In this document: positions 2,570 to 41,283 of the stretch, one piece after another
How positions within the stretch are numbered: the first letter of the stretch is position 1
How the letters are laid out: each line of letters starts with the position of its first letter
NCBI GenBank assembly: GCA_964609465.1
Contig: CAZSSQ010000001.1
Location: forward strand, 1 to 57,429
Reading direction: 5' to 3'
DNA from: an uncultured Dehalococcoidia bacterium
GTDB lineage: Bacteria; Chloroflexota; Dehalococcoidia; DSTF01; JALHUB01
Length of the DNA stretch: 57,429 bases
Notes under the pieces: model-generated
The model's database searches: none
Told to the model about the DNA's origin: nothing
What the model saw: only the letters and a program-made list of their open reading frames with translations
Position numbers and translations under genes: made by a program

Positions 2570-3487
2570 TCAATCGTGGATTTCGACGCGGGTGCCGGGC
2601 TGGGCGAAGAGCCAGAAGTACTGCGCATCGTGGAGGCGGAGGCCGACGCAGCCGTGGCTGGTGGGTGCGGAGCCGAATACGGAGTCCGCCCGCCAGTAGT
2701 TCAGGTGGAGAGCGTCACCCTGGCGGTCGAAGTACTGGGTGAAGAGCACCCTCTCAACGTCGTAGCGGGCCTGTGAGGGGTCGTAACCCGCCTGCGAGGC
2801 GGTCATCCGCTCCAGCACGATGCGCCCGTCGGGCTCGATGTAGTGCGTGCCGGGGGGTGTCTCGAAGCCCGGTGCGCCGGTGGTGGCTGCCGCCACGTGC
2901 ACCACTTGCTCCCCCACCATGGCCCGCACCGTCTGCTCCGAAAGGCTTACGTCGATCCACTTCTCCTCCCCTCCGAAGTCGAGGAGGGGTGAAGACTCTC
3001 CCTCCAGGAGCTGGAAGACGAAGACCCCGTAGACGTAGCTGCCGTCCTCCAGTTGGAGCCATTCGCTGGCCCAGGGAGGGCTCGCGGAGACCCACGTCTG
3101 TTCTCCCACCAGCCAGTTCTCGCCCTGCACGGCGGCCGCGATGCGCACCGGCTCCTGGTCCGGCAGGGTCCCTATCGGGATGTTGCGGGTCGAGGGCTCC
3201 GGCCGGGTCCGCACTTCGCCCCCGACGACGATGGCGCTGCCAGCCTGGAGTTGCGGGACCGGCGTCGGAGACGGCTCGGGCGTGAGGGTCGGGGGCACGG
3301 GCGTTGGTATCTGGGTTGGGACCAGTGTCGGCGTCGGGGTGGGTTCCGCGGGCCCCAGGTAGCACGCCTGCCCCAGGCCCAGGTTCAGGGCGAGAGTGGC
3401 CAGGAGCAGGGCGAGCCCCAGCGCGTGACGAAAGCGACGTCTTCCCCGGCGGCCTGCGTCGTAGCTCTGGTTGTTCTGAAGGCGCAT
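2570..3487 (-). CDS. L,D-transpeptidase (YkuD domain) with signal/anchor and a Pro/Thr-rich linker
   Basis: The C-terminal catalytic motif HLNYW...SHGCVGL matches the YkuD His/Cys signature. The N-terminus has a hydrophobic segment followed by a PTPTPT linker. Confidence 0.8.
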   Translation of the reverse strand: MRLQNNQSYDAGRRGRRRFRHALGLALLLATLALNLGLGQACYLGPAEPTPTPTLVPTQIPTPVPPTLTPEPSPTPVPQLQAGSAIVVGGEVRTRPEPSTRNIPIGTLPDQEPVRIAAAVQGENWLVGEQTWVSASPPWASEWLQLEDGSYVYGVFVFQLLEGESSPLLDFGGEEKWIDVSLSEQTVRAMVGEQVVHVAAATTGAPGFETPPGTHYIEPDGRIVLERMTASQAGYDPSQARYDVERVLFTQYFDRQGDALHLNYWRADSVFGSAPTSHGCVGLRLHDAQYFWLFAQPGTRVEIHD

Positions 3488-10850: not shown

Positions 10851-11113
10851 GAAGTCACCTCTCTATGCACGGCTTGCGGGTCGGCTGGACCGAATCTAGC
10901 ACAGGCGTCGTTAGCCCTGACTACTGCCAATTGGCCCATTTCCTTGGTCATCTGGAGGATAGTACACCCGGCGGCCGGCGGTCAAAGGCGCTGCGCGGAC
11001 GGCTGCGGACCGGGCCGGCAGGGGGCTCCCGGTCGAGGGGATTTCCCTGATTGACGCGTCTCCCCGCAACCGGAATCATGGTACCTGGAGCTAGCCTCTG
11101 TCGGGCGTTTTCT

Positions 11114-12238
11114 ATGCGGGTTGGTATCTACCTTGTACCGCTGCTTGACCACGTTACAGGCCGCGAGAGGGGCATGCAGGGTCTCTTGGACGCTCTTGCC
11201 CGCCTCGACGGGGCCAACGACTACTATCTCTTCGTGAGGCCCGGAAACCGGCGGCTCTTCCAGCGTCCTGAGCCCAACTTTCACACCGTAGTGGTCCGGC
11301 TTCCCTCCCTGCCCTCGCGACGGCTGTGGCAGTTGGGTCACCTCTACCTGGCCCGCTGGGCTCACCGCCTGGACGTCATCGACCTGCCGGAGTCGCCCAT
11401 GCCCGGCTTCTTCTCCAAGAGGGCCGTGGCCATGGTCCACGATATCACGCCGGTGCTCTTCCCCTCTCTTCTTCCGCCCAAGGGACGTTTGTTCTACCGG
11501 AGGGCTCTCACGCTCGGCATCAAGCGCCTGGGCCGGATCACGGTGCCTTCGCAGTGCACCAAGAACGACCTGGTGACGCATCTCTCGGCCGATCCCGGCA
11601 AGGTGACGGTGGTCTCCCGGGGCGTGGACCCACGGTTCCAGACGGCCCGGCATCTCGAGCCGATAGCCGCGGTGAAGCGGAAGTATCGCCTGCCCGACCG
11701 GTTCATCCTCTACGTGGGGACGCTGGAGCCACGCAAGAACCTGGCCCGCCTCATCGGCGCCTATCGCCGGCTGAGGGAAGAGGGGGCGTGCCACGCGCTG
11801 GTTATCGCAGGCGCCAGGGGCTGGCTCTGCGACGACGTATTTGAGGCCGCCGGCCGCGACGGCTTGAGAGAGCATATCATCTTCACCGGGCACGTGGGCG
11901 AGGACGACCTGCTGGCCCTCTACCAGTCGGCCGACGTCTTTGCCTACCCTTCCCTGTACGAGGGGTTCGGCCTCCCCGTGCTGGAGGCCATGGCCTGCGG
12001 CGTGCCCGTGGTCTGCTCGGACCGGGGCTCCCTGCCCGAGGCGGCCGGCGACGCTGCCCTCCTGGTGGACCCCACCGACGAGTCAGCGATTGCGGCTGCC
12101 CTGGCCAGGGCCCTGCGCGACGATGACCTCCGTCGGGAGCTGGTGGCCAGAGGCCTGCGCCGGGCGCGGGAGTTCACCTGGGACAGGGTGGCGCGGAGCT
12201 TCCTATCGGTCTACCAAGAGGTGGCCGCCGGACGATGA
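11114..12238 (+). CDS. Glycosyltransferase family 4
   Basis: C-terminal GT-B signature YPSLYEGFGLPVLEAMACGVPVVCSDRGSLPEAAGDAALLVDP. The track ORF begins at 11051. I prefer the in-frame ATG at 11114 (MRVGIYLVP...), which matches a typical GT4 N-terminus. Confidence 0.8.
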   Translation: MRVGIYLVPLLDHVTGRERGMQGLLDALARLDGANDYYLFVRPGNRRLFQRPEPNFHTVVVRLPSLPSRRLWQLGHLYLARWAHRLDVIDLPESPMPGFFSKRAVAMVHDITPVLFPSLLPPKGRLFYRRALTLGIKRLGRITVPSQCTKNDLVTHLSADPGKVTVVSRGVDPRFQTARHLEPIAAVKRKYRLPDRFILYVGTLEPRKNLARLIGAYRRLREEGACHALVIAGARGWLCDDVFEAAGRDGLREHIIFTGHVGEDDLLALYQSADVFAYPSLYEGFGLPVLEAMACGVPVVCSDRGSLPEAAGDAALLVDPTDESAIAAALARALRDDDLRRELVARGLRRAREFTWDRVARSFLSVYQEVAAGR

Positions 12239-12286: not shown

Positions 12287-13504
12287 CTACGGCAGGTAGG
12301 AGAGGGGGTCCCGGCGCACGCCGTTGTCGATGACCTCGAAGTGGAGGTGGTTGCCGGTGCAGTGGCCGGTGCACCCCACGATGCCCAGCGGCTGTCCCTG
12401 CCGCACCCTCTGCCCCTCGGTCACGCTGATGGACTCCAGGTGGGCGTAGAGAGTGATGATGCCTTCCGTGCTATCGACGATGACGTATAGCCCGTAAGAG
12501 CAGCAGGGGTCGCCGCCGGCGAAGACGACCACGCCGTCTGTGGCCGCCACGATCGAGCCTTCCGACTGCCCGATGTCTATTCCCAGCGGGTGGCTGGGCC
12601 CAAAGTAGCTTGTGATGGGGCCCAGGGCCGGCCAGACCAGGCGCCGACGCTGGTCTTCCTGCAGAAGCGACGTGCGGTACTTCTGGAAGAACTGGTGGAT
12701 ACCATCTGCCAGGCCTTGAGCCAGGGCTTGGCCCTTGCTGTCGCCGGCGGCGGAGGCCGGGACCTCCAGAAGCACCGTCGTCATCCGCGCCCGACCGGCC
12801 AGCAGGACGCCGCAGTCGAACGCCTCGGGGTCCGCGATGTCGCCGTCCCCCTGGTTCACGTTGGGTAAGCCGGTCGCCGCGAGACTTCTCAGGAGCAGGT
12901 CGGCCAGTTGGCCGCCAAGAGAGCCTTTCACCTGGCAGAACCAGGCCTCGAGGCCTGTGTCGGCGTTCGCGCCGGCGGCAGGTCGAATGGCAACGTAGGC
13001 GTCGGGCCGGAGGGGGCCAGCGCCGTTGTCGGCAGCGTCTCCCTCCAGCAGAGTGACATCGTAGCCCTGAGCCTCCAGGCTTTGCTTTGTGAGAAGCGCT
13101 ACTTCCACCGTGTCCGCCGAGGCGGATGTGCCCACGTCCAGGACAGCGGCCAGGCGCCGCCTGGCGGTAAGGCTGGCTTGGGAACGTTCTGACGCACGCG
13201 TCTGTCCCGACACGGGGCGAGCGCGGGTGGCTGGCAGGGCTTCGCTGGGTGCCGGATAGCGGATGGCAGGCGTGGCCTGGGGGGCCGTCGGACCGGGCGA
13301 TGTCTGTGTGGTCGCCCGCACCGGCTGTAAGGGTTGCGCCTCGTCCGGGATATCGCGCGGTTGTGTCGGCGAGCCTGTCTCGCCATCAGGTGGACCGGCC
13401 TGCGCTCGGGCGGCCTGTAGAGACACGATGATGACGCCGACAGCCAGGACCGCCGTCAGCACGGCGATGGCGCGAACCGTTGCCGTCCACAGAGCCGCAA
13501 GCAT
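12287..13504 (-). CDS. Membrane-anchored M23 (LytM-type) metallopeptidase with a central degenerate amidase_3-like domain; last gene of the archaellum gene string
   Basis: The N-terminal TM helix is IAVLTAVLAVGVIIVSL. The C-terminal M23 motifs are SHPLGIDIG and GCTGHCTGNHLHFEV. The central region AVLDVGTSAS...PDAYVAIRPAA...GLEAWF...TTVLLEVPAS...LADGIHQFF aligns by eye to the N-acetylmuramoyl-L-alanine amidase (Amidase_3) fold, but the two His zinc ligands read T and R. The start lies 6 nt after the upstream gene's stop. Confidence 0.85.
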   Translation of the reverse strand: MLAALWTATVRAIAVLTAVLAVGVIIVSLQAARAQAGPPDGETGSPTQPRDIPDEAQPLQPVRATTQTSPGPTAPQATPAIRYPAPSEALPATRARPVSGQTRASERSQASLTARRRLAAVLDVGTSASADTVEVALLTKQSLEAQGYDVTLLEGDAADNGAGPLRPDAYVAIRPAAGANADTGLEAWFCQVKGSLGGQLADLLLRSLAATGLPNVNQGDGDIADPEAFDCGVLLAGRARMTTVLLEVPASAAGDSKGQALAQGLADGIHQFFQKYRTSLLQEDQRRRLVWPALGPITSYFGPSHPLGIDIGQSEGSIVAATDGVVVFAGGDPCCSYGLYVIVDSTEGIITLYAHLESISVTEGQRVRQGQPLGIVGCTGHCTGNHLHFEVIDNGVRRDPLSYLP

Positions 13505-13510
13505 AGCCGG

Positions 13511-14053
13511 CTAAGCAGCCCTCTCCTGCTTCTGAGGGTTCTCAACTCCCGCGGCTTGCCTCCCCAGGAGGTCGTTGCGGATGGAGCGGGCTACGGCCAG
13601 GAGATCCACTGCCGGCAGGTCTTCCAGGTCATCCTTCAGCACCGGCGCCGTGAACGTACGCTTGGCGCTAGCCCTGAACATGTGCATCGGGTCATCTGAA
13701 GAGCCCTCCTCCGTCTGGGGCTCTTCACCCACACTCTCTGGTGCCTGGCTCTCGGGCGCTGGCGACTCCTCCGTCTGGTCCGGGGACTTATCTTCGCCGG
13801 TGAGAAGCTGTCCAGCCTCGTCTTCGGCGGGCCTGGCCTCCCCCTGGGACGGCGGGTCTGCCATCTCTCCCTCCACTGCTGGCACGTTGACCTGGGGAGC
13901 ATCCGCCTCCGGCGTCCCTGCTAGCGTGGCCCCCTCTGCGTCTCCGGGGAGAGAGGGTATCATGAGAAGACCGTTCTCTTCGGCGCCAAACTCGTCCTGC
14001 TCTTCGTTCTGGTCCTCGTCGGGGGTCTTCAGCAGCCGTGTCAGGAATCTCAT
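13511..14053 (-). CDS. Hypothetical acidic, low-complexity (E/D/P/A-rich) protein with a short conserved-looking C-terminal segment
   Basis: 180 aa ORF, 16 nt downstream of the arlJ stop and 6 nt upstream of the M23 gene. The composition is plausibly disordered and I recognise no family. Coding status rests mainly on its tight operon fit and the absence of a competing ORF. Confidence 0.5.
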   Translation of the reverse strand: MRFLTRLLKTPDEDQNEEQDEFGAEENGLLMIPSLPGDAEGATLAGTPEADAPQVNVPAVEGEMADPPSQGEARPAEDEAGQLLTGEDKSPDQTEESPAPESQAPESVGEEPQTEEGSSDDPMHMFRASAKRTFTAPVLKDDLEDLPAVDLLAVARSIRNDLLGRQAAGVENPQKQERAA

Positions 14054-14069
14054 GGGGTATTACCTCCCT

Positions 14070-15629
14070 TCACTGTCCTGGTGATACCGGGGTGGCGGCT
14101 ATGTTCTGGAAGAGCACCGACACCATGGCAGGTATGACGATGATGGCGATGCCGGACATGAACATCATTATTGCTGCGAACAGGCAGAGCTTGTAGCGAT
14201 TTCCGCCTCCGGCCGCGTAGGGCGCGAAGCTGTTCGCTGCCGTCAACACTAGGATCATCATGCCGACGAAGAGGCTGATGAAGTGCATGTTGGGGGCAGA
14301 GTACAGGAGCATGTTGCTCACGCCCGCCTCGGACATGATGTCGCTGTTGAGGCTCTGGTCCTGGACCTTGGCCAGCTCGGCGCCGAATATGCGCATCACT
14401 TCCGTGATGAACAGCATGATGGATAGGAGAACGGCGTGGAGCGGAACCACCACCCATGCAAAGGTGGAGGACACCAGCTTGCGGGTGGACCGCTGCAGCG
14501 CCACCTTCTGTGCGAAGGTGGAAGCCAGGGAGCCCACTCGGCTGGCGTCGCCGCCCAGTCGCAGGCCGTCCCAGAAGACGCGCACGGAGCGGCTCACCAG
14601 CTCTGACCCTGTCTCACCGGCGAAGCGCAGCCAGCAGAGCTGCGGCGATATGTTGTTGCCCAGCCTCACGTAGAGACGGCGCACGTTGGGCTCCAGAGCG
14701 CCCAGGGAGCGCCGGTTGAGTCGGCTCAGGCCCTCGCCCACGGTGGTTCCCACGGCGCCCATCACGCCGCCCAGAGCGCGCAGGAAGGTGGCGATGTCTT
14801 GGTCGCGGGCGTCCACCTTCCAGTCATCGCGGAAGGCCACGTAGCCCAGCGGTGCCAGAACCAGCGCGCTCCCGATGAGGGCCGGACCCAACCCGAAGGT
14901 GAAGCCCAGCACGGCGCCGAAGACGGCCGCCACCGGCAGCAGGATCTGGCTCAGCCGCGCCATCTGGTATTGCTCCGGCGACTTTCTCGCCAGATGATGC
15001 GTTTTCACCTCGTGAGGGGCGACGCTGAAGATGACCCAGCTTCCGGCTATGGTCACTAGCAGCACGACGAAGGCCAGGCCGACGATGACGCCCGCCCCCA
15101 TGGAGTAGATCATCATCGAGACCATGGAGATGACTACGATGAGGGTGCAGGAGACCATGAGGGCTACGTAGGCGTCCGCCCACTTGCGCAGCGATTCCAT
15201 GTCCCGCTCGTACTTCTTGCCGTAGAGCTCCAGTTGGACCTCGGTCTCTCGGCCCAGGAACTCTTCTTCCGGCTCGCCGGCCGAAAGAGCGGTGGACAGG
15301 CGAAGGAGCAGGTTCTGCACATTCTCCGGCCCCGTCGTTTCCGCCACCATTTCGCAGGCGTGCGAATAGTCGTAGTTCAGGCGTTGCGCCACCCGGTGGA
15401 CGCGGCGAAAGAAGCGGGAGGTGCTGTAGTCCAGCCGGCCCGTTCCTTCGAAGAGCCTATCACGCGATATGCCTGCCGTCGCCGCGGCCGACATGTGGGT
15501 GAGCTGGCTGATGAGGTCGAAGTCCAGGGGCTCCCGGCTGAAGAGGGAGGACGCCGCTGGACTCTCCTCATGCGGCTCGCTAGATGAGGCCTTCCCGTCC
15601 CGCCTGAGAAAAGACTTGATAGAGATCAT
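14070..15629 (-). CDS. arlJ: Archaellum platform membrane protein ArlJ (FlaJ; T2SS-F/TadC-like)
   Basis: 519 aa polytopic protein with two cytoplasmic T2SSF-like repeats (...NYDYSHACEMVAETTG...LLRLSTALSAGEPEEEFL...). It follows arlI directly, and its ATG at 15629 overlaps the arlI 3' end by 50 nt. Confidence 0.85.
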   Translation of the reverse strand: MISIKSFLRRDGKASSSEPHEESPAASSLFSREPLDFDLISQLTHMSAAATAGISRDRLFEGTGRLDYSTSRFFRRVHRVAQRLNYDYSHACEMVAETTGPENVQNLLLRLSTALSAGEPEEEFLGRETEVQLELYGKKYERDMESLRKWADAYVALMVSCTLIVVISMVSMMIYSMGAGVIVGLAFVVLLVTIAGSWVIFSVAPHEVKTHHLARKSPEQYQMARLSQILLPVAAVFGAVLGFTFGLGPALIGSALVLAPLGYVAFRDDWKVDARDQDIATFLRALGGVMGAVGTTVGEGLSRLNRRSLGALEPNVRRLYVRLGNNISPQLCWLRFAGETGSELVSRSVRVFWDGLRLGGDASRVGSLASTFAQKVALQRSTRKLVSSTFAWVVVPLHAVLLSIMLFITEVMRIFGAELAKVQDQSLNSDIMSEAGVSNMLLYSAPNMHFISLFVGMMILVLTAANSFAPYAAGGGNRYKLCLFAAIMMFMSGIAIIVIPAMVSVLFQNIAATPVSPGQ

Positions 15630-17319
15630 AGAAGTTTGTTCTGCCGTCCTGGCTCAGCTTCTGGATCAGGCTGGCTCGGCGCTCCAGTTCATCGTAGACG
15701 GCCCGCTTGTTGCGGGTGTCCAGGCCGCGCCTAGGCGCGATAACCTGCTCCAGGAGGTAGCTGTTGCCGCTGCCCGTAAACTCGAAGATGTCCCTGGAGG
15801 AGTCCCAGCGGAAGATTTCGATGAAGGAGAACGAATCGGTATCAGAGTCGTAGTCGATGATCTCACTGATAGAGACGATGCGCCGACCCATCTTGCCGTC
15901 CGGCAGCCGTACAGAGCTACAGAGGACCACGACGTTCAGGTTGTCCATGTAGACCTTGGGCACGTTGATAGGATGGCCGGTGAGACGCTGGATTAGCTTC
16001 TCCACCGTGGAGGCGTGAAAGGTGGCCATGACGGCGTGCCCGGTCTGCATAGCCTGGAAGGCGATTGCTCCCTCCTCGCCACGGATCTCGCCCACCAGGA
16101 TGGCGTTGGGCCGCTGGCGCAGGGCGGCCTTCAGCAAGCTGAACATCGTCACGGACGAGTCGTCGTCGGCCATGCTGCCCCGGACCACCTCTCGGATCCA
16201 GTTTGGGTGCGGCACCTGAAGCTCCGGCGTGTCCTCTATGCTCACGATCTTGGCCCAGGGCTGGATGAAGCCCGAGATGGCGTTGAGCAGGGTCGTCTTA
16301 CCGGAGGCCGTCTCCCCCGAGACGAAGACGTTCATGCCCTCATTCACAGTCAGCCAGAGGTATGCCGCCATGTGGCAGTCCAGGCCGCCGCCCCCCATGA
16401 TGTCCGTGATGCTCAGAGGTGTGGAGGTGAACTTGCGGATGGTGAAGTTGCTACCACGCTTGGACACGTCACCCCCGTAGACGATGTTGATACGCGAGCC
16501 GTCGGGCAGGGTGGCATCGACGATGGGGTTCCTGTAGGTGACGGGCCTGTTGATCTTCTCCGAGAGGCGGATGACGAACTCGTCCAGGGCCTCCGTGCGC
16601 TCGAAGGAGACAGAGCTCTTGAGGCCCTTGAAGATCTTGTGCTCGATGAAGAGGAGTCCCAGGCCGCTGCAACTGATGTCCTCGATGTAGGGGTCATGGA
16701 TCAGAGGCTCCAGGACGCCGAGGCCGATCTTGTCGCGGACCAGCAGGTACTCCAGGCCGGCAAACTGCCTGCCGGTGACGGGAATCTTGCCGCCTGACTT
16801 TGCCGGGCGCGAGAAGAGACCGCCGCCAGACTTCTTCCCATTGGAGCGTTTGCCTCCCCCGTTGCTCGTCACCGCGCAGTTCTCCTGGACGGCCTGCCGC
16901 AGGACTTCGGCCTTGGCTTCCGACGTTTCGGCGCGCTCCAGCGCATCCACATAGTCCATGAGCCGGCGCTCTAGCTGGTCCAGGATGGGCTCCAAGTCCC
17001 CTACGGACGAAGGCTCGATGGCGATGTAGTAGTCGCGCGCATCCGCGGCGTCGGGAAAGATGTGCACGAAGAGGTCATCGGACACTGGATAGATCAGGTT
17101 GGGGTGTTTCAGGTCGCCCAGCTTTCGGTTGAGTTCAGGGTAATACTCTGGCATCCCCACCTCAGCGATGGGCACTTGATGCAGATACTCCAAGAGGTGC
17201 GGCGCTTGGGCCGTCCTTTCCTGAAGGGCTGGGGGCAGCAGCCCGTGAAGGCTGCACTGCTCAGCCCCTGCCCCATGCTGATGGCTTGTGCCCTCGCTGC
17301 TGAAGGGGAGATTCTTCAT
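15580..17319 (-). CDS. arlI: Archaellum assembly/motor ATPase ArlI (FlaI; VirB11/T2SS-E superfamily)
   Basis: Walker A is VSGETASGKTTLLNA and Walker B / catalytic Glu is PNAILVGEIRGEE. The His box region reads TGHAVMATFHA. The start overlaps the arlH stop in an ATGA junction. Confidence 0.9.
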   Translation of the reverse strand: MKNLPFSSEGTSHQHGAGAEQCSLHGLLPPALQERTAQAPHLLEYLHQVPIAEVGMPEYYPELNRKLGDLKHPNLIYPVSDDLFVHIFPDAADARDYYIAIEPSSVGDLEPILDQLERRLMDYVDALERAETSEAKAEVLRQAVQENCAVTSNGGGKRSNGKKSGGGLFSRPAKSGGKIPVTGRQFAGLEYLLVRDKIGLGVLEPLIHDPYIEDISCSGLGLLFIEHKIFKGLKSSVSFERTEALDEFVIRLSEKINRPVTYRNPIVDATLPDGSRINIVYGGDVSKRGSNFTIRKFTSTPLSITDIMGGGGLDCHMAAYLWLTVNEGMNVFVSGETASGKTTLLNAISGFIQPWAKIVSIEDTPELQVPHPNWIREVVRGSMADDDSSVTMFSLLKAALRQRPNAILVGEIRGEEGAIAFQAMQTGHAVMATFHASTVEKLIQRLTGHPINVPKVYMDNLNVVVLCSSVRLPDGKMGRRIVSISEIIDYDSDTDSFSFIEIFRWDSSRDIFEFTGSGNSYLLEQVIAPRRGLDTRNKRAVYDELERRASLIQKLSQDGRTNFYDLYQVFSQAGREGLI

Positions 17320-18032
17320 GCCTTGGCTCTAGTCATTGGTATGATGCGCATGCCCAAGCCGGGCTCGACGTCAAAGGCGATGACGTTGCCGGTATTCTGG
17401 TCGGCCCCCCGGACCTTAGATACCTCCATCTCCTTCAGGAGCTGAGTGCCTATCTCCCCCACCCTCAACCGCAAGTAGGCGTCGCAGATGGAGCGGATGC
17501 GGATGAACATAGCCTCGCTGAACGCGTAAGAGTGCATGGTCAGGAGCAAGGTCTTGTTCTGGTCGCACAAGTCTTTGACCGCCATGAAGAAGGAGAGAGT
17601 CTCCTGCTCAGGGATGCTGGTCATGAAGACGCTGAGCGAATCGAAGGCCAGGAGCTCACGGTCCTCCGTCATCCTTGTCATGTGATCGAGGGCGAACCGA
17701 AGCATCGCGCGAGCCTCGTCCTCCGTGGGGGCGGAGCGCATAGGATAGATGTTTATACGACCCAAGAGGAAGAAGTCGGTAATGTCCTGGTTGAGGCTCT
17801 TCATCTGCCGGAGGAGGCTGTGGATGGTGTTCTCTGTGGTGTAGTAAGCCACCCGTCTGCCATCCCGAAGGGCGCCCCACACCAACTGCTGAGTCAGCAC
17901 GCTCTTGCCTGCCTCGGACTGGCCCTCGATGAGGGTCAGCGAGCCCTCCGGGATGCCGCCGGCCATCTTCTTGTCCAGCTCGGCGTTACCGGTGGAGATA
18001 TAGTGGCGCTTGTGTTCCGGCTCCTCGGTCAT
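17316..18032 (-). CDS. arlH: Archaellum KaiC/RecA-like ATP-binding protein ArlH (FlaH)
   Basis: 238 aa. ISTGNAELDKKMAGGIPEGSLTLIEGQSEAGKSVLTQQL is a RecA/KaiC-type Walker A context. The position immediately upstream of arlI is canonical. Confidence 0.85.
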   Translation of the reverse strand: MTEEPEHKRHYISTGNAELDKKMAGGIPEGSLTLIEGQSEAGKSVLTQQLVWGALRDGRRVAYYTTENTIHSLLRQMKSLNQDITDFFLLGRINIYPMRSAPTEDEARAMLRFALDHMTRMTEDRELLAFDSLSVFMTSIPEQETLSFFMAVKDLCDQNKTLLLTMHSYAFSEAMFIRIRSICDAYLRLRVGEIGTQLLKEMEVSKVRGADQNTGNVIAFDVEPGLGMRIIPMTRAKA

Positions 18033-18070: not shown

Positions 18071-18571
18071 TTACCCTGTGAACGTGGTGGAGACGGTGAC
18101 GCCCAGGTCCGTAGCGACGAGGAGGCGGTTGGTGGTACCGCCGCCCGCCGGCGGATCAAGCCAGATGCGCATCCTGAGGGTCTCCCCCGGGTTGAGGATG
18201 CCCGGCTCAAAGGCGTCGTTGATGATGTTCTGGACGGTCCAGGTGTTGGGCGCCAGGGCGCCGTTCGTGTAAGGGATCCAGGCCAGCGCGGGGCTGCCGC
18301 CGCCGGTGGTGTACTGCACGAGCACGTCCATGCGGTCATAGCCGGCCAAGGTGGTGCTGCCGTCATTCTGAAGATCTGCGTCCACATAGGGGCTGCTTGA
18401 GGTCACGTTGGTGATGGTGAGCCGGGTGTGCATCTGTTCGGCGGAGCGGGTTTCCATCTCCTTCCAGAGCTGTCCCATCTCATCAACAGACCGGTAACCT
18501 GACCGGGCCAGCACCATGGCGGACACCATCAGAATGGCGGCGATGACGGCGGCTGGTATGCTGGTCTCCAT
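18071..18571 (-). CDS. arlG: Archaellum stator/periplasmic component ArlG (FlaG)-like
   Basis: 166 aa with an N-terminal hydrophobic helix (IPAAVIAAILMVSAMVLA) followed by a beta-rich, archaellin-like soluble domain. The assignment relies mainly on the canonical position between arlF and arlH. Confidence 0.6.
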   Translation of the reverse strand: METSIPAAVIAAILMVSAMVLARSGYRSVDEMGQLWKEMETRSAEQMHTRLTITNVTSSSPYVDADLQNDGSTTLAGYDRMDVLVQYTTGGGSPALAWIPYTNGALAPNTWTVQNIINDAFEPGILNPGETLRMRIWLDPPAGGGTTNRLLVATDLGVTVSTTFTG

Positions 18572-18583
18572 GGCCTGGCGCTC

Positions 18584-19030
18584 CTAGACGCTGAAGAACT
18601 TGGCATCGCTGATGCCGTTGGGGACCACCACTTTGACGAAGTAGGTGGTGCCCGTTGTGAGGGGGTAGTCCAGGTAGATGATGATGTGGAGGGTGGCCGT
18701 AGGCCCCCACTCGGTGGCGCCACCTTCCAGCGCGTAGTCCCAGCAGGGCGCCGTGCAGCTAGGGCCTCCATAGGGGATGCGGTTGAAGTTGTCTTCGGGG
18801 CCGAAGAAGACATCGGTGGAGTCGATGGGGCCAACGCGGGAGGCGCCCACGTTCTTGACCCAGGCGTCGGCCTGGGTAGCGGTATCCACGCCAGTGGCAT
18901 GGATGATCTCCACCTGGCTCGAGATGCGGTCGTTGACCACGTCAGAGGTCATGACCATGGAGCTGTTGGTGCGGCTAAGCGCGGGCATGACCGAGTTGAC
19001 CACAGCGACGATGGCCACAACCGCGGCCAC
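18584..19030 (-). CDS. arlF: Archaellum stator/periplasmic component ArlF (FlaF)-like
   Basis: 148 aa with an N-terminal hydrophobic helix and a beta-rich domain (...VEIIHATGVDT...AWVKNVGASRV...). It holds the canonical position between arlC/D/E and arlG. The hydrophobic helix continues in frame upstream of the GTG start (see findings). Confidence 0.6.
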   Translation of the reverse strand: MAAVVAIVAVVNSVMPALSRTNSSMVMTSDVVNDRISSQVEIIHATGVDTATQADAWVKNVGASRVGPIDSTDVFFGPEDNFNRIPYGGPSCTAPCWDYALEGGATEWGPTATLHIIIYLDYPLTTGTTYFVKVVVPNGISDAKFFSV

Positions 19031-19145: not shown

Positions 19146-19841
19146 CTACCGGTTCCTTCCTGTGCTGCGGCGCCGTCGTAGAAACGACATCTCGTCGCTC
19201 TCTGCTCCTTGGAAGATGGCCTCCAACTGGCGTAGGGCGACCAGTGTGTCGTTGACAGAGACGGTGGCGCTATCCTTGCGGCTACTGGCCAGCTTGACGA
19301 CCTTCAGCAGAGCCTCCTCCGCCTCCGGCGGAATGAGACCCGCGAAGGGGGCCAGGTCGAGGATCATCTGCAGGTGGGTGGTGCCCAGCCGGGAGGTGGT
19401 CTCGTCGACCCAGGCTATCAGGCCAGCGATGGTGGACACGCTCCAGGCCTGAGGAACAGCCGCCTCAACCATCGCCGGCAGGGGGGTGACCTCCGGGCCG
19501 CCCCCGGCCATCGTCGGCAGAGGTGCGCTCTCCGGGCCGCCCCTGGTCTCCGGGGGGGCGGTCGGCTCCACCCGCAGCACATGCGGGAGCGGGTCCTCCA
19601 CCTCGCTGGCCGTCGCCGGCGCCCTGGTAACGCTCGGAGGAGCCTCCTCCGACGCTGGAGCGGGCTCGCTGGCCGCGCCCGAGCGCTCTATGGGCTGGAA
19701 AACTGGCAGGCCGCCCTGTGACGCGAAGGGGTTGTCCCGGGCGAGGACAGTCGTCCTGATCTCCTCCAGGATCGACTTGATCTCGCCCTTGAGGAGCTTG
19801 ACCTCCTCCTCCAGGGCAGCTATCTGGGCGGTGATCTCCAT
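19146..19841 (-). CDS. ArlC/D/E (FlaC/D/E)-like archaellum accessory protein
   Basis: 231 aa. It has an N-terminal coiled coil (MEITAQIAALEEEVKLLKGEIKSILEEI), a Pro/Ala-rich linker and a C-terminal segment TIAGLIAWVDETTSRLGTTHLQMILDLAPFAGLIPPEAEEALLKVV. The C-terminal segment resembles the FlaD/E domain pattern. The gene sits between archaellin and arlF, as in euryarchaeal operons. Confidence 0.5.
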   Translation of the reverse strand: MEITAQIAALEEEVKLLKGEIKSILEEIRTTVLARDNPFASQGGLPVFQPIERSGAASEPAPASEEAPPSVTRAPATASEVEDPLPHVLRVEPTAPPETRGGPESAPLPTMAGGGPEVTPLPAMVEAAVPQAWSVSTIAGLIAWVDETTSRLGTTHLQMILDLAPFAGLIPPEAEEALLKVVKLASSRKDSATVSVNDTLVALRQLEAIFQGAESDEMSFLRRRRSTGRNR

Positions 19842-19926: not shown

Positions 19927-20517
19927 CTAATGTAGCTGCATTACCTCGGCCAGTTCCGCTGGCAGTTGCCGGGTGATGTCGAGGACGGCGCCGACAGGCG
20001 TCTGGACCTCCAGGGTGAAGCGGTCATTGGCAGACAACGTGGGCGCGGGACTGATGGCGCTCGCGCTAATGACAATGACCTTTACCTCGCCCGGCTCCAG
20101 GAGCGTGTCGCCGTCGCCCACGATGTCGTCGGCCGTGTACGTCACGTCGTTGTCCGTGACGGCGTCGTCACGGTAGGCGATGACCGTCCGGTTCTGGCTG
20201 GCGGCGGGGTCCAGGGGAATGGACTCTCCACCGGCCGTGGTGGCTACGGTGAAGAAAATGTCGTCCACGGCTAGGGGCGAGCCCGTGGCCGAGACGACGA
20301 TGCCCCCGCGTACCTCCATGGTGCCGCGGGCCTTCTGTAGGCCGGCGAAGACGGTCTCCTTGCCCCGCTCGGCGCTAAAGATACCGGTGGTCAACACGAC
20401 GAAGGCGAAGATGGTGGCGACCACGACGAAGGCGATGAGGATGATGGCGGTCTCAAGACCGGTGATCCCTCGCTCTTCGCGGTGGATCCGGCGCAGCGCG
20501 CTGGTAAGTCGCTTCAT
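19927..20517 (-). CDS. arlB: Archaellin (archaeal flagellin), copy 1
   Basis: The class III (type IV pilin-like) signal peptide and hydrophobic N-terminal helix are MKRLTSALRRIHREERG/ITGLETAIILIAFVVVATIFAFVVLTTGIF. A beta-rich C-terminal domain follows. AAGGAGGG lies upstream of the ATG. Confidence 0.9.
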   Translation of the reverse strand: MKRLTSALRRIHREERGITGLETAIILIAFVVVATIFAFVVLTTGIFSAERGKETVFAGLQKARGTMEVRGGIVVSATGSPLAVDDIFFTVATTAGGESIPLDPAASQNRTVIAYRDDAVTDNDVTYTADDIVGDGDTLLEPGEVKVIVISASAISPAPTLSANDRFTLEVQTPVGAVLDITRQLPAELAEVMQLH

Positions 20518-21070: not shown

Positions 21071-21664
21071 CTAGTGGAGCTGCATCACGGCAGCCAGTTC
21101 CGTCGGTAGCTGCCGGGTGATGTCGAGCACGGCGCCGACCGGCGTCTGGACCTCCAGGGTGAAGCGGGTATTGGCGTCCATGGTGGGCGGGCCATCGATG
21201 CCCGTGGCCCGGTCGATGCTAACGAGTATCAGCTCGCCCGGCTCCAGCAGCGTGTCGCTGTCCCCCACGATGTTAGTGACCGTGTAGGTCACGTCGTTGT
21301 CCACCGTGGTGGCGTCGCGGTAAGCGATGACGGTTCGGTTGTTGGTGGCTGCCGGGTCCAGGGGAATGGACTCTCCACTGGCCGTGGTGGCCGCGGTGAA
21401 GAAGATGTCGTCCACGGCCATAGGTGAGCCCGTCGCCGTGGCGACGATGCCGCCGCGGATCTCCATTGTGCCGCGGGCCTTCGCCAGGCCGGCGAAGACG
21501 GTCTCCTTGCCCCGCTCGGAGCTGAAGATACCTGCCGTCAGCACGACGAAGGCGAAGACGGTAGCGACCACGACGAAGGCGATGAGGATGATGGCGGTCT
21601 CAAGACCGGTGATCCCTCGCTCTTCCCTGTGGGCCCGGCGCAGCGCGCTGGTAAACCGCTTCAT
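21071..21664 (-). CDS. arlB: Archaellin (archaeal flagellin), copy 2
   Basis: MKRFTSALRRAHREERG/ITGLETAIILIAFVVVATVFAFVVLTAGIF. By eye it is roughly four-fifths identical to copy 1, with divergence concentrated in the outer C-terminal domain. Confidence 0.9.
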   Translation of the reverse strand: MKRFTSALRRAHREERGITGLETAIILIAFVVVATVFAFVVLTAGIFSSERGKETVFAGLAKARGTMEIRGGIVATATGSPMAVDDIFFTAATTASGESIPLDPAATNNRTVIAYRDATTVDNDVTYTVTNIVGDSDTLLEPGELILVSIDRATGIDGPPTMDANTRFTLEVQTPVGAVLDITRQLPTELAAVMQLH

Positions 21665-21876: not shown

Positions 21877-22611
21877 CTAGTCCAGTTGCTCCAGGACCCG
21901 GCTGTAGACGATCCGGGCCAGTTCTTCCACCGGCTGGAAGGGCTCGGTGTCGCGGGGATTCTCTACCACCACCAGGGCCAGGACGGGGCCTGTGGCGAAG
22001 AGGACAAAGTCCGACTGGACCCCTTCACCTGTCGGCGGTGCCAGGCTCCGGCCCCGCAGGGATCCGGGGATGGGCTCGTCGGTGGCGGTGAAGAAGACTT
22101 CGGGGAGGGCGCCACCCAGCCGCTGCCGGGCCAGGCGCTCCAGCTCCGCCACCAGCGGCGTCACCGTCTGCAGAGTGCGGTCGTCGTCTCCGGCCTGGAG
22201 CGCCAGCGGCTCGCCGGGCCGGAAGACCACGAAGGTAGCGACCGTGGAGGAGTCTTCGGGGTCACGATAGGCGGAGAAGGCCCCGGCAACCGTCTCCTCC
22301 TCCAGCATGAGGCGGATGAGGGGGCTGTTGGTCATGTAGGGGTAGGCGGCGGCCTCCACCGGCACCCATCCTGAAGGCAGGTCGCCTCCGGCCAGGAGCG
22401 TCTCGCGGGCCACGAACTCGTCGCCCCCACCTCTCGCTCTCACGAGGACCGTTAGCGCCAGGCTCACCAGGAGAGCCAGCTCTATGGCAAGGAGAGCCAG
22501 CAGCAGGCGCCGGCGTCCCCCCGGAAGTCCCGGCAGGCGGCGGAAGCGGAGCGCAGGCATCAGCTTTCGGGAGAGCACTGCAACCTTCCCCTCAACCAGT
22601 AGAACGCGCAC
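21877..22611 (-). CDS. Hypothetical membrane-anchored protein upstream of the archaellin genes
   Basis: 244 aa with one TM helix (LLLALLAIELALLVSLALTVLV) and a soluble domain with no family I recognise. Alternative in-frame starts exist, for example MPALRF. Confidence 0.45.
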   Translation of the reverse strand: MRVLLVEGKVAVLSRKLMPALRFRRLPGLPGGRRRLLLALLAIELALLVSLALTVLVRARGGGDEFVARETLLAGGDLPSGWVPVEAAAYPYMTNSPLIRLMLEEETVAGAFSAYRDPEDSSTVATFVVFRPGEPLALQAGDDDRTLQTVTPLVAELERLARQRLGGALPEVFFTATDEPIPGSLRGRSLAPPTGEGVQSDFVLFATGPVLALVVVENPRDTEPFQPVEELARIVYSRVLEQLD

Positions 22612-22709: not shown

Positions 22710-23417
22710 ATGACGCGCACCTTCGACAGGAGGAGTGGAGAGGTGCCTGGAAGAGCGCAAGGAGTGTGGCCGCTGGCCGTGACCATCGTCGCGGCGCTGG
22801 CTTTGGCGGCGGCTCTGTTCTCAGTTTCCCCTCAAGAGGCGGGCGCCGCAGACGAGTCTCCCACGCCTACCGAGACGCCAATCAGCACGCCCACCGAGAC
22901 CCCTACCAACACGCCTACGAACACGCCGACCAACACGCCCACCGAGACGCCCACCAACACGCCTACGAACACGCCGACCAGTACACCCACCAACACGCCG
23001 ACGGCGACAGCCACTGACACGCCCACGCCGACGCCCACTTATACGCCCACCGCTACCCCTACGACAGCGTCCACCGGCACTGCCACTGCCACCCCTACTT
23101 CCACGGCGGCAGCGGTCGCTAGCCCGACGCCGTCAGGACAGGGCGGTGCGGCGGCTTGGGGTACGCCCTCGGCTACTCCGGCCCTGGTCCTGGCCAGCAC
23201 AACCGTCGAGCCGTCGCCGGAAAGCGACCCGGCCGGAGCCGTCCGGGGCCAAGCATCCTCTCAGGGCGGCGCAACCAGCCTGCCATTGGCGGGCGATGGC
23301 GGTACGGGGCCGCTCATACCGTGGCGGCCCGTGACGGCTACCGTGATCATCCTCCTGGTGGGCGCGGGTAGCTGGGTCCTGTACTACGGGCTGCGGGAGG
23401 CTACCGCCGAGGACTGA
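22710..23417 (+). CDS. Secreted/anchored Thr/Pro-repeat protein
   Basis: It has a signal/anchor (VWPLAVTIVAALALAAALFSV), a long (T/N/E)-P-T repeat region and a C-terminal LPLAG...TM helix (VTATVIILLVGAGSWVLYYGL) with a short tail. Confidence 0.6.
   Translation: MTRTFDRRSGEVPGRAQGVWPLAVTIVAALALAAALFSVSPQEAGAADESPTPTETPISTPTETPTNTPTNTPTNTPTETPTNTPTNTPTSTPTNTPTATATDTPTPTPTYTPTATPTTASTGTATATPTSTAAAVASPTPSGQGGAAAWGTPSATPALVLASTTVEPSPESDPAGAVRGQASSQGGATSLPLAGDGGTGPLIPWRPVTATVIILLVGAGSWVLYYGLREATAED
22889..22984 (+). repeat. 48-nt tandem direct repeat (2 near-identical units) inside the Thr/Pro-repeat gene
   Basis: Unit 1 (22889-22936) is GCCCACCGAGACCCCTACCAACACGCCTACGAACACGCCGACCAACAC. Unit 2 (22937-22984) differs at a few positions. 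The units encode PTETPTNTPTNTPTNT and PTETPTNTPTNTPTST. Confidence 0.8.
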
Positions 23418-32371: not shown

Positions 32372-32812
32372 ATGCTGTGTCCGCGATGCAACGTCGAGCT
32401 ACAGATCGAACAGCACCATGGTATCGAGGTGGACCACTGTCCGTCCTGTAACGGCCGCTGGCTGGACCACCACGAGCTGGATCAGCTAGAGGCCACCGTC
32501 GCCTCCGAGGAGGAGCGAAGGGCCACCATTGTCTACTCCCCCCGGCCCAGCGAACTGGCCTGCCCCAAGTGCGGCAAGCAGATGACGGCCTTCAACTACC
32601 GCGCCTACAACCTGGAGATCGACACCTGCGAGGACGAGCACGGTTTCTGGCTCGATGCCGGCGAGGAGGGGCGCGTCCGCGACGTCGTCGAGGAGCGCGT
32701 CCGCGGTCTGGCCCGCGCCGCCCCTGCCGAAAGGGCCTGGGATCAGTTTCTCGCCGGCATGGGGCGGAAGTCGGTCTGGGACCAGATCAAGGGTATCTTC
32801 CGCGGTCGGTGA
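32372..32812 (+). CDS. Zinc-ribbon (TFIIB-type zf) domain protein, two tandem repeats
   Basis: The first repeat is MLCPRCNVEL...DHCPSCNGRWLDHHELDQL. The second, partly degenerate repeat is CPKCGKQM...DTCEDEHGFWLDAGE. Confidence 0.6.
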   Translation: MLCPRCNVELQIEQHHGIEVDHCPSCNGRWLDHHELDQLEATVASEEERRATIVYSPRPSELACPKCGKQMTAFNYRAYNLEIDTCEDEHGFWLDAGEEGRVRDVVEERVRGLARAAPAERAWDQFLAGMGRKSVWDQIKGIFRGR

Positions 32813-33917
32813 TAAGGAGACCCTGCTGCTCTCCCCAGGCCTGGCCGTGTCCCTGAGCGTTGGCCGTAGTCCGGGTGAGGGCCGCCAGCGCAGCCAGCCC
32901 CAGCGTGAAGCCGAAGCCCAGGATCAGGGCCCGGACCAGGAGTGCGGAGGCAGCAGCCAGGCTTCGCGGCGCACCAACGATCGCCTGGGTCATGCCCGTG
33001 ATGCTGCCTTCTGTTACTCCCAGCCCTCCTGGTAGCAGGGAGAGGCTCCCGGCAAGCGACGCGACAGGGAAGATGAAGCCGGCCTGGATGAGCAGCTCCC
33101 AGGTCATGGGCCTGCCGAGGCCCACGAGCACCAGGAAGAACGTCAGACACTCCAGCGACCAGGCCACCAGCCCAAGACTGAGAGCCCAGGATAGCCCCGC
33201 CGGCGAGAGGAGAAGGCGCGAGCTTTCGTGGAAGTCCTCCATGGGGGGTAGGAGACGGCGAGCGGGCGGGAACCGTGCCGCGCCCCGGAAGAGTAGCGAA
33301 GCCAGCCCCCGGTGTCGAAGCGCCATGATGGCCACCACGGCCATCACGCCGACAGCCACGAAAACAGCTCTATCCCAGTCGAACAGGACAAGGCCGGTGG
33401 TGGCCAGCAGAAGCATGACGAGGGTATCGGTGATCCGCTCCACCAGGGGTATGGGAGCCGTGCGCGCTACCGGGGCGCCGTATAGCTGGCGCGCGTAGTA
33501 GCTCTTCACCCATTCGCCCACCCGCGCAGGCGTCAGGATCATAGCGGTGCCCGCGAAGAAGACCAGCAGGTCCTGCCATAGGCCTGGGGTCTGGCCGCTG
33601 GCGAGCTGCACCAGCCTCCGCCAGCGTAAGTAGCGCACCAGGTAGTTGAGCGCCGTCAGGCCAAGCAGCGCCGGCATCAGGTTCCACTGGAAGCCGGCGA
33701 GGGTCGCGGAGACGTCTCCGAAATCGGCATAGAGGCCGAGGCCCATCGGCACGGCGAAGGCGGCCAGCAGGGAGAGGAGGAGCGCCCGGCCCCAGGTGAC
33801 TCTGCGCCCTGCGGCGGCGGGTGGCGCGCCAGACGTGATTTCGGCCTGGATCGGCTCGCTCGGCAGGGAGGTCACGTCAACATGAAGGGCGGCCGCGCCG
33901 CGCGGGGACGGGCTCAT
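32787..33917 (-). CDS. Flippase-like membrane protein (lysyl-phosphatidylglycerol synthase TM-region / UPF0104 family)
   Basis: 376 aa polytopic protein. ...LLGLTALNYLVRYLRWRRLV... is typical of this family. Its start overlaps the upstream gene's stop by 4 nt. Confidence 0.65.
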   Translation of the reverse strand: MSPSPRGAAALHVDVTSLPSEPIQAEITSGAPPAAAGRRVTWGRALLLSLLAAFAVPMGLGLYADFGDVSATLAGFQWNLMPALLGLTALNYLVRYLRWRRLVQLASGQTPGLWQDLLVFFAGTAMILTPARVGEWVKSYYARQLYGAPVARTAPIPLVERITDTLVMLLLATTGLVLFDWDRAVFVAVGVMAVVAIMALRHRGLASLLFRGAARFPPARRLLPPMEDFHESSRLLLSPAGLSWALSLGLVAWSLECLTFFLVLVGLGRPMTWELLIQAGFIFPVASLAGSLSLLPGGLGVTEGSITGMTQAIVGAPRSLAAASALLVRALILGFGFTLGLAALAALTRTTANAQGHGQAWGEQQGLLITDRGRYP

Positions 33918-36621: not shown

Positions 36622-36633
36622 GCTGGGTCTCTC

Positions 36634-37839: not shown

Positions 37840-37891
37840 GCCCTCCGGGTGGTTCCTTCCGCTCCATCAGGCCCGGCTGCCCGGGCGGTGC

Positions 37892-39103: not shown

Positions 39104-39441
39104 ACGTCCTCCTGCTCAGGTAGATGTTCGGTGGAGGTAGGCCGCGCGACATAGGTGTTTCCCCCTATCTGGGGGCGCGAAACCCTGTACGGAGCGCGGC
39201 CTGCCGGCCCGCCACTGGCGGCAGGAGGCGGCCAGGCTGAGGCTGGGTGCTGACCTGGGGGGAGCTGTGATGGCGGCCGGAGGCGGCTGGCGCCGCTCTG
39301 AGGCCGCCACCGCGGTTCGCCTGCCGACTGCGGCGAAGCTGGACTTGATGTAGACTATCCTAGCGGCTGTAGGGGGATCCTTGTGAAGCAAGCGGGCTCA
39401 TCGCGCACGCTTCCGGCGTTTCCAGGGCAGGAGCCTTCACG

Positions 39442-40542: not shown

Positions 40543-40543
40543 G

Positions 40544-41251: not shown

Positions 41252-41283
41252 GCGGGCGTTGACAGGCTCCCCTGTCCATCCAC

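Follow-up and report, generated by a model that had tools for sequence, protein, structure and literature searches.

A candidate wall-remodelling gene pair beside the archaellum operon of a Chloroflexota clade

We analyzed a stretch of 57,429 nucleotides from an uncultured Dehalococcoidia bacterium (contig CAZSSQ010000001.1, assembly GCA_964609465.1), hereafter the window, whose minus strand carries an archaellum operon of the arl2 type between about 21.7 and 12.3 kb. Beyond arlJ, two further genes continue on the same strand, the first encoding an acidic protein of 180 amino acids and the second a membrane-anchored, putative peptidoglycan hydrolase of 405 amino acids. The reading that we favor, with reasonable though far from full confidence, is that in one clade of Chloroflexota this pair acts as a module devoted to remodelling the wall when an archaellum is assembled.

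Two genes at the end of the archaellum operon

The gene order of the operon matches the arl2-type order described for other archaellum loci of Chloroflexota (PMC12488501). Its features are listed below in the direction of transcription.

21071-21664, minus strand: arlB copy (Pfam Arch_flagellin)
19927-20517, minus strand: arlB copy (Pfam Arch_flagellin)
19146-19841, minus strand: gene of 231 amino acids at the arlCDE position, without a family match and named by position only
18584-19030, minus strand: arlG (Pfam matches including FlaF_Ig-like)
18071-18571, minus strand: arlF (Pfam matches including FlaF_Ig-like)
17316-18032, minus strand: arlH (Pfam KaiC-type ATPase)
15580-17319, minus strand: arlI (Pfam T2SSE)
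14070-15629, minus strand: arlJ, for the membrane platform protein of the archaellum; final core gene of the operon (NCBIfam ArlJ/FlaJ, E 2.7e-131)
14054-14069, minus strand: spacer of 16 nucleotides between arlJ and the acidic gene, AGGGAGGTAATACCCC, with the Shine-Dalgarno sequence AGGGAGG (read from the sequence)
13511-14053, minus strand: gene for the acidic protein, 180 amino acids (open reading frame call)
13544-13702, minus strand: C-terminal motif of the acidic protein, residues 118-170, DDPMxMFR ... LEDLPAVDLLAVARSIR (hidden Markov model and homologues)
13505-13510, minus strand: spacer of 6 nucleotides between the acidic gene and the hydrolase gene (read from the sequence)
12287-13504, minus strand: hydrolase gene, 405 amino acids, encoding an anchor, a tether, a pseudo-amidase and an M23 domain (open reading frame call, AlphaFold2 and homologues)

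These coordinates agree with the initial annotation of this DNA, in which arlJ was followed on the same strand by two genes after gaps of 16 and 6 nucleotides. Spacers of this length leave no room for a promoter or terminator. The same annotation had proposed to look for either element as a possible boundary behind arlJ, and a consensus scan from arlJ to the end of the M23 gene detected neither a promoter-like nor a minus-strand terminator-like site. The hydrolase gene has its ribosome-binding site, GGAGAGGG, in the closing codons of the acidic gene, so that the two may be translationally coupled. The spacer between them is 2-6 nucleotides or a 4-nucleotide overlap in related loci, with 21 and 46 nucleotides in two. 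On the other side, a GT4 glycosyltransferase gene (11051-12238, plus strand) converges on the hydrolase gene, so that the operon ends with the 405-amino-acid gene; the sequence after this gene did not fold into a terminator better than shuffled sequence (z = -0.85). The window also holds a YkuD L,D-transpeptidase gene (2570-3487, minus strand), present as well in the syntenic locus L001, which indicates, if indirectly, that the organism probably builds peptidoglycan.

Domains of the hydrolase and of its acidic partner

The 405-amino-acid protein has more than 100 full-length homologues, and its AlphaFold2 model reached a predicted local distance difference test score (pLDDT) of 79.8. Four segments were delimited, given here from the N-terminus.

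13412-13468, minus strand: N-terminal signal-anchor helix, residues 13-31 (hydropathy 2.51; AlphaFold2 helix 2-35)
13214-13270, minus strand: tether motif, residues 79-97, PAIRYPAPSEALPATRARP (conservation in homologues)
12635-13159, minus strand: pseudo-amidase, residues about 116-290 (Foldseek and hhalign)
12290-12628, minus strand: M23/LytM metallopeptidase domain, residues 293-405 (Pfam, phmmer against the PDB, and Foldseek)

In a cross-architecture alignment the sequence of the anchor helix, including its ...VS.YAA(R/K) end, is kept across hydrolases with differing catalytic domains. Residues 36-111 form a Pro-rich stretch of low model confidence, a tether of about 75 residues in which P86 is invariant and P79, A89 and P91 occur in at least 90% of 60 sequences. 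The tether motif, Y-x-x-P-x-E-A-L-P or more fully (R)Y.(A/V)P.EALPAT, is common to proteins that carry only an amidase, a dead amidase with M23, or an SLT domain with M23.

Searches with the central domain returned no useful match in Pfam (no Amidase_3 at E up to 0.1), in NCBIfam or, by phmmer, in the PDB. Because M23 matches dominate the Foldseek results of the full-length model, the central domain was modelled alone (pLDDT 80.8; predicted template modelling score 0.81). Its top three PDB matches are then Amidase_3 enzymes, namely PlyPSA (1xov, E 1.6e-7), AmiC2 of Nostoc as the second-best (5emi, E 3.1e-7, template modelling score 0.66) and CD27L (3qay, E 2.6e-6). In addition, a profile of the central-domain family aligns with the intact Amidase_3 domains found at the same locus position elsewhere (hhalign probability 98.9%, E 1.6e-17). 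The homology came to light only through such locus-guided profiles and through structure, and on both grounds the central domain is predicted to have the Amidase_3 fold and to be homologous to real amidases.

The active site is a different matter. Where intact amidases read LDPGHGRGDPGA...TEA...SIH(A/N)NG, the window reads LDVGTSAS...AIRPAAG, with LDVGTSAS in place of LDPGHGRG and AIRPA in place of SIH(A/N)N. All three zinc ligands are replaced, the first His by T126, the Glu by about A128 and the second His by R174. No His of the central domain is conserved across 60 homologues, and the GHG motif is kept in 0 of 120 homologues of the protein. Since the His-Glu-His ligands have been replaced, we call the domain a pseudo-amidase and do not count it as a functional member of Amidase_3. 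In the same 60 homologues W188, C190, C231, G237 and R238 are nevertheless invariant, which argues that selection still maintains the domain in some role other than catalysis. The initial annotation had aligned this region to Amidase_3 by eye, noted the loss of two zinc-binding His (GTSAS and AIRPA) and proposed to predict the structure and check the zinc site; the isolated model and the hhalign comparison bear out the fold, the alignments confirm the absent ligands, and the Glu position proves to be lost as well.

The C-terminal domain matches Pfam PF01551 Peptidase_M23 over residues 308-400 (E 7.8e-26; bit score 90.6, cut-off 28.7). The LytM beta-sheet fold is indicated by Foldseek, in which the full-length model matched domains of LytM, ShyA, EnvC, StM23 and DipM (target template modelling score 0.7-0.8, E 3.5e-12 to 1e-8). 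The M23 motif is defined loosely in MEROPS as H(x)nD, and it is accompanied by HxH and an extra His about 30 residues before HxH (PMC9662197). All of these elements are present, and H305, D310, H355, H386 and H388 are invariant in 60 homologues. The membrane-anchored protein with intact M23 motifs that had been annotated initially therefore stands as to its helix and its five catalytic residues, with one amendment: HPLGID is Hx4D, one residue longer than the usual Hx3D of M23B enzymes. In a phmmer alignment the canonical M23 His falls on P306 rather than H305. Of 120 homologues, 117 have HPLGID or a close variant of it, and one relative with an SLT domain (type D, below) has the canonical spacing HRAID with the same His. 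We take H305 to be a zinc ligand and, judging from these residues, the M23 domain is probably active. The best NCBIfam matches are DipM, ShyA/C, MepM and NlpD, all far below their cut-offs.

The domain also contains an invariant vicinal Cys pair, C334-C335 (GGDPCCSYG, 12497-12502), which is a peculiarity of the family. A second Cys pair (GCTGHC) is lost in some homologues that keep C334-C335. Disulfide formation or metal binding are candidate roles for C334-C335 and for C190/C231 of the pseudo-amidase.

Such a domain could also be a non-catalytic LytM factor of the EnvC, NlpD or DipM type, and as such would stimulate, at the archaellum, an amidase or other autolysin encoded elsewhere. DipM and EnvC, whose LytM domains are degenerate, are indeed among the best structural matches, the Hx4D spacing of the first zinc motif is unusual, and the fusion to an amidase fold recalls the pairing of EnvC with AmiB (8c0j, among the Foldseek matches). 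Degenerate LytM factors are, however, defined by lost zinc and catalytic residues (PMC9662197), and here all five are kept; in the PDB the closest match by sequence is StM23 (9gy1), which is an active hydrolase, and the fused amidase is dead, leaving nothing to activate in cis. We consider this explanation very unlikely, and by its residues the 405-amino-acid protein belongs to the M23 family, albeit with a deviating first motif, and is not a degenerate LytM factor of the EnvC/NlpD type.

The product of the preceding gene is of another kind. As annotated initially, it is rich in Glu, Asp and Pro (23% D+E, 10% P), with an isoelectric point of 4.06 and a net charge of -27, and it is predicted to be largely disordered. 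It lacks a hydrophobic segment (maximum 19-residue hydropathy 0.79) and has no match in Pfam or NCBIfam. Among 27 homologues both ends are conserved and the D/E/P-rich middle is variable. The N-terminus is amphipathic, MRFLTRLLK...EENGLLM in the window, with the family consensus MRFLTRLLKTPDED...DEF.AEE.GLLM. The conserved C-terminal block spans about 55 residues (DDPMxMFR...LEDLPAxDLLAxARSIR), and a hidden Markov model built from 14 seeds detects this motif next to the hydrolase in almost all loci (E 1e-7 to 1e-21). When 1.84 billion representative proteins were searched exhaustively with a profile, only 71 clusters emerged, of 56-265 amino acids and matching at the C-terminus, among which there was no further domain and no informative fusion, name or annotation. 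As far as sequence searches go, then, the family is narrow and uncharacterized.

In one group of relatives (type B, below) the acidic protein begins with a transmembrane helix and then a basic stretch, a topology that leaves the acidic part on the cytoplasmic side. Because the window protein has no signal peptide, because of this type-B topology, and because two short motifs flank a disordered acidic spacer, the sequences suggest a cytoplasmic adaptor rather than an enzyme. Candidate partners are ArlJ, ArlH, ArlI, the protein at the arlCDE position and the cytoplasmic N-terminus of the hydrolase, which is Arg-rich in type B. An apparent fusion of ArlJ to the acidic protein in locus L032, a stop-to-stop open reading frame of 648 amino acids, was rejected as an open-frame artefact of high GC content; arlJ stops there at TAG, and the ribosome-binding site and ATG of the acidic gene come next.

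Linkage to archaellum genes and exchange of catalytic domains

The conservation of the pair was surveyed in 31 species-representative genomes selected through ArlJ, with 3 contigs added later. The 31 are metagenome-assembled genomes labelled Dehalococcoidia, Chloroflexia or Chloroflexota, with ArlJ identities of 50-88%; the survey covers one ArlJ clade, with Litorilinea, SAR202 and archaeal loci outside the sample, and a later homology search likewise saturated inside this clade. Loci were annotated by local tblastn and hidden Markov model searches. In every ArlJ-anchored locus with enough flanking sequence (29 of 29), the acidic gene is followed directly by the gene of a membrane-anchored peptidoglycan hydrolase. 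The remaining 5 contigs on the ArlJ side end at or just after arlJ, and the start of the pair is still visible in 2 of them. From the opposite direction, 6 of 6 loci anchored on homologues of the hydrolase, which were picked solely by the length of their contigs and are 41-71% identical to the window protein, turned out to be archaellum loci. The linkage in related genomes that the initial annotation had asked about is thus kept in both samples. It also survives in clade B, in which the pair has been relocated from behind arlJ to a position upstream of arlB. As a control we took 80 metagenome loci with generic M23 domains, among the matches listed by an M23 family-alignment scan; 0 of 80 carried arlB, arlI, arlJ, the pseudo-amidase or the acidic protein. 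The hydrolase hence shows the conserved genetic linkage to machine genes that marks the class of machine-dedicated hydrolases.

These counts bear on a simpler explanation, by which the protein is a housekeeping wall hydrolase for growth or daughter-cell separation that lies beside the arl genes by inherited gene order only. M23, Amidase_3 and SLT enzymes are mostly housekeeping enzymes, the sub-threshold NCBIfam matches (DipM, ShyA/C, MepM and NlpD) point the same way, and all loci come from one related clade. Yet the linkage persists down to 50% ArlJ identity and through both relocation of the pair and replacement of the catalytic domain. Moreover, the gene is tightly spaced with a family-specific acidic partner that occurs almost nowhere else (the 71 clusters), and the generic M23 loci listed were linked to arl genes in 0 of 80 cases. 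We therefore regard a housekeeping role as very unlikely, and keep to a module dedicated to archaellum assembly.

In several long-read metagenome-assembled loci (L005 12974-19276; L035; L036; L013 5029-5682) the M23 gene is intact and arlI/arlJ are fragmented or the acidic gene is frameshifted; sequencing error or decay of the archaellum are both possible.

The hydrolase is not the same enzyme in every locus. Four architectures were distinguished.

Type A (the window, L001-L003, L008-L011): arlJ, acidic gene, then anchor with dead amidase and M23
Type B (L004-L007, L013-L016, L018-L020, L035, L036): hydrolase as in type A; the two genes of the pair overlap by 4 nucleotides, follow a DUF922 gene and stand upstream of arlB
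Type C (L012, L024, L027-L030, L033, L038, L119, L120 and one further contig): arlJ, acidic gene, then anchor with intact Amidase_3 and without M23
Type D (L023, L025, L026, L031): arlJ, acidic gene, then anchor with an SLT-like domain (SLT/SLT_2) and M23

Locus L021 encodes SLT only, without M23. The Amidase_3 domains of type C match Pfam at E 1e-31 to 1e-38. The anchor helix and the tether motif are present in all four architectures, and one tether Pro is invariant in 13 proteins that span them. The catalytic part has accordingly been exchanged among three classes of peptidoglycan hydrolase within a frame of anchor, linker motif and acidic partner that has stayed constant. In a midpoint-rooted neighbor-joining tree of ArlJ the architectures correspond to clades, with A and B as sisters, D as a clade and C as basal branches. 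The simplest history starts from an amidase ancestor to which M23 was added, after which the amidase decayed (A and B) or was replaced by SLT (D). On this evidence, what selection kept beside the archaellum genes is a tethered hydrolase with its acidic partner and not one particular chemistry.

The same comparison is informative about a second role that the protein might have. It could serve as an anchor instead of a drill, with the pseudo-amidase binding peptidoglycan uncut and fixing the archaellum stator to the wall, any cutting being secondary. Such a device would replace the S-layer anchoring of archaea, and would be MotB-like or similar to the PilO-LysM protein proposed for Litorilinea. 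The invariance of the surface residues W188, C190, C231, G237 and R238 after loss of the ligands indicates that a selected function persists, and peptidoglycan-binding accessories have been proposed for the Litorilinea archaellum (PMC12488501, PMC13319060). On the other hand, basal loci hold a catalytically intact Amidase_3 alone, type-D loci have SLT where the pseudo-amidase would be, and the M23 catalytic residues are invariant; what is constant across architectures is a hydrolase and not a binding domain. We judge a purely anchoring role unlikely, if somewhat less so than the other two alternatives, and each of the three conflicts with at least one observation.

Other genes recur near the pair in particular types. 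A DUF922 gene always precedes the acidic gene and M23 gene in type-B loci (L004 8490-9143; L007 8346-8996 and 7610-8263; L013-L020), and in L007 a prepilin peptidase (Peptidase_A24) gene adjoins it. In type B a lipoprotein-like gene of 164-169 amino acids with a weak DUF11 match comes after arlJ. Type-D loci have an EMP24/GOLD-like gene of about 150 amino acids (MYRQLGT...FEFDNRHS) after the hydrolase gene (L026 13179-13619; L021, L023, L025); one is also found near the hydrolase in a type-C contig (P0312), and it may be a third accessory component. In some type-C loci (L119 5485-7590 and the P0312 contig) arlJ comes right after arlF with no arlH or arlI between them, which fits reported variation in the order of arlHIJ.

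Around the operon of the window itself, the GT4 gene at 11051-12238 is missing at the matching position of the otherwise syntenic L001, where Lar_N is directly next; it might have to do with the O-glycosylation that bacterial archaellins are reported to carry. Upstream of arlB lies a 244-amino-acid gene (21877-22611, minus strand) for a membrane protein without a family match. Membrane proteins of 229-247 amino acids are encoded at the equal position in type-A loci (L001 609-1298; L003 931-1674), and a PilN/PilO-like identity for the window gene was rejected as there was no detectable similarity. Beyond it, 22710-23417 (plus strand) encodes a protein of 235 amino acids with Thr/Pro-rich PTNTPT-type repeats, a signal-like N-terminal region and a hydrophobic C-terminal tail; it has no Pfam match and may be a cell-surface protein adjoining the archaellum operon. 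Envelope and glycan genes at 32787-43143 (LPG_synthase_TM, GT4, GT2, GT2_3, an FtsX-like ABC pair and a family-less open reading frame of 535 amino acids) are unrelated to the archaellum finding as far as examined.

Proposed role and comparison with known systems

A wall-remodelling module of this kind could work as follows. The 405-amino-acid protein would sit in the membrane through its N-terminal helix, with its N-terminus inside and its C-terminus outside, and the Pro-rich tether of about 75 residues would extend the hydrolase to the peptidoglycan. There, the M23 domain would cleave peptide cross-links locally, as its counterparts in other clades would cleave amide or glycosidic bonds. The natural pores of the murein mesh are much smaller than an archaellum filament and its stator; local cutting would make or widen a gap for the filament together with the ArlF/ArlG stator, roughly 10 nm across. 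The zinc-less amidase-like domain should no longer cut, and would most likely bind peptidoglycan or regulate M23. The cytoplasmic acidic protein, by means of the motifs at both its ends, probably couples the anchor of the hydrolase to the ArlJ/ArlI/ArlH platform, and this coupling would restrict cutting to the sites of machine assembly. The initial annotation had suggested that the two genes are bacterial add-ons that open or organize the sacculus. The linkage, the spacing and the predicted fold all came out in favor of this idea; the opening of the sacculus is the part that we infer, and the acidic gene may be a bacterial addition or may have arrived with the archaeal cluster.

Several observations weigh against the proposal. 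Some Dehalococcoidia have no peptidoglycan, and in these uncultured organisms its presence is deduced. The N-terminal helix could be a cleavable signal peptide (cut between AQA and G), in which case the enzyme would be released and the local-action model weakened. Because the Hx4D spacing is non-canonical, the activity of the M23 domain is not assured. Co-transcription with the arl genes is not universal, since 0.5-1.7 kb separate the pair from arlB in clade B. As the loci belong to one ArlJ clade (50-88% identity), their conservation may partly reflect shared ancestry and not selection. Finally, in Litorilinea aerophila, the sole bacterium with a demonstrated archaellum, PilN and PilO-LysM were reported and a hydrolase was not mentioned (PMC12488501, PMC13319060), so the module may not be general.

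The first demonstration that bacterial archaella function dates from 2025, and the follow-up study calls the crossing of the wall layers unresolved (PMC13319060). In the papers on bacterial archaella that we searched, PMC12488501 and PMC13319060 among them, M23, amidase and hydrolase go unmentioned, and a full-text literature search found no publication that links archaella with peptidoglycan hydrolases. The pair would be the first concrete candidate for the passage of the filament through a bacterial wall, one that is enzyme-based and strictly conserved, and it is found in Chloroflexota with archaella that are distinct from Litorilinea and form a far larger set. It comes with a natural series of variants (intact amidase, dead amidase with M23, SLT with M23, and SLT alone), in which a pseudo-enzyme has arisen beside a newly fused active domain. 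With its putative wall-breaching module, the horizontally acquired archaellum would be a clean case of a cross-domain machine fitted to a foreign envelope. The acidic partner family, in turn, may couple cytoplasmic assembly to extracellular wall cutting. More speculatively, acquisition of the module might have been the step that enabled an archaeal rotary motor to operate behind a murein wall, with the adaptor reading how far the ArlJ platform is assembled, gating a hydrolase with exchangeable heads across the membrane and thereby confining a pore of defined size to the nascent archaellum. This is a tentative scenario that we would sooner doubt than endorse, although if true, adaptor-gated cutting would represent a new way of controlling a peptidoglycan hydrolase from the inside out.

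Among individual enzymes, the active M23B peptidases (LytM, lysostaphin, ShyA, MepM and StM23) share the fold, the HxH motif and the extra catalytic His with the window protein. The latter differs in its Hx4D rather than Hx3D motif, its own invariant Cys-Cys pair, another domain context and its linkage to an archaellum. AmiC2 of Nostoc punctiforme, which drills nanopores in septal peptidoglycan, has the same fold as the central domain (5emi; Amidase_3, PF01520) and is a precedent for hole-making by this fold, whereas the window domain is without all three zinc ligands and without a Pfam match to Amidase_3.

The only accessories proposed so far to deal with the wall at an archaellum are PilN and PilO-LysM of Litorilinea aerophila (PMC12488501, PMC13319060). 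Like the pair described here, they are bacterial envelope proteins beside a horizontally acquired archaellum and are proposed to adapt it to the wall. They are, however, wall-binding alignment proteins and not hydrolases, they belong to another class of Chloroflexota, and no homologues of them were detected in the window.

Hydrolases dedicated to a machine are familiar from other trans-envelope systems, in which FlgJ, SltF, PleA, EtgA, VirB1, CwlT/PrgK and TagX serve this purpose. In FlgJ, SltF, PleA, EtgA, VirB1 and TagX, which belong to flagella and secretion systems of diderm bacteria, the likeness is that a wall hydrolase, encoded with or recruited by a nanomachine, opens a local gap. FlgJ, SltF, PleA, EtgA and VirB1 represent a class of mostly soluble periplasmic glycosidases or lytic transglycosylases that are exported by or bound to their machine, and TagX is an L,D-endopeptidase. 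To our knowledge, none of these six serves an archaellum or shows the anchor-plus-tether design with swapping of catalytic domains, and they are the looser analogues.

By analogy of function and design, the closest counterparts appear to be the conjugation hydrolases of Gram-positive bacteria, CwlT (ICEBs1), PrgK (pCF10) and TraG (pIP501). These act on a monoderm wall, are anchored by an N-terminal helix and are encoded in the operon of their machine. They combine two hydrolase domains, an SLT or muramidase domain with a peptidase, to which PrgK adds a LytM domain, and some of the domains are inactive. They serve a type IV secretion system, in contrast to an archaellum of archaeal origin; their peptidase is of the CHAP or NlpC/P60 family, in place of the M23 and zinc-less Amidase_3 domains of the window; and the hydrolase here always comes with a small acidic cytoplasmic partner that has no counterpart there. 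The membrane anchor, the encoding within the operon and the two-domain build are nonetheless common to both, and the SLT plus M23 hydrolases of type D have nearly the same architecture.

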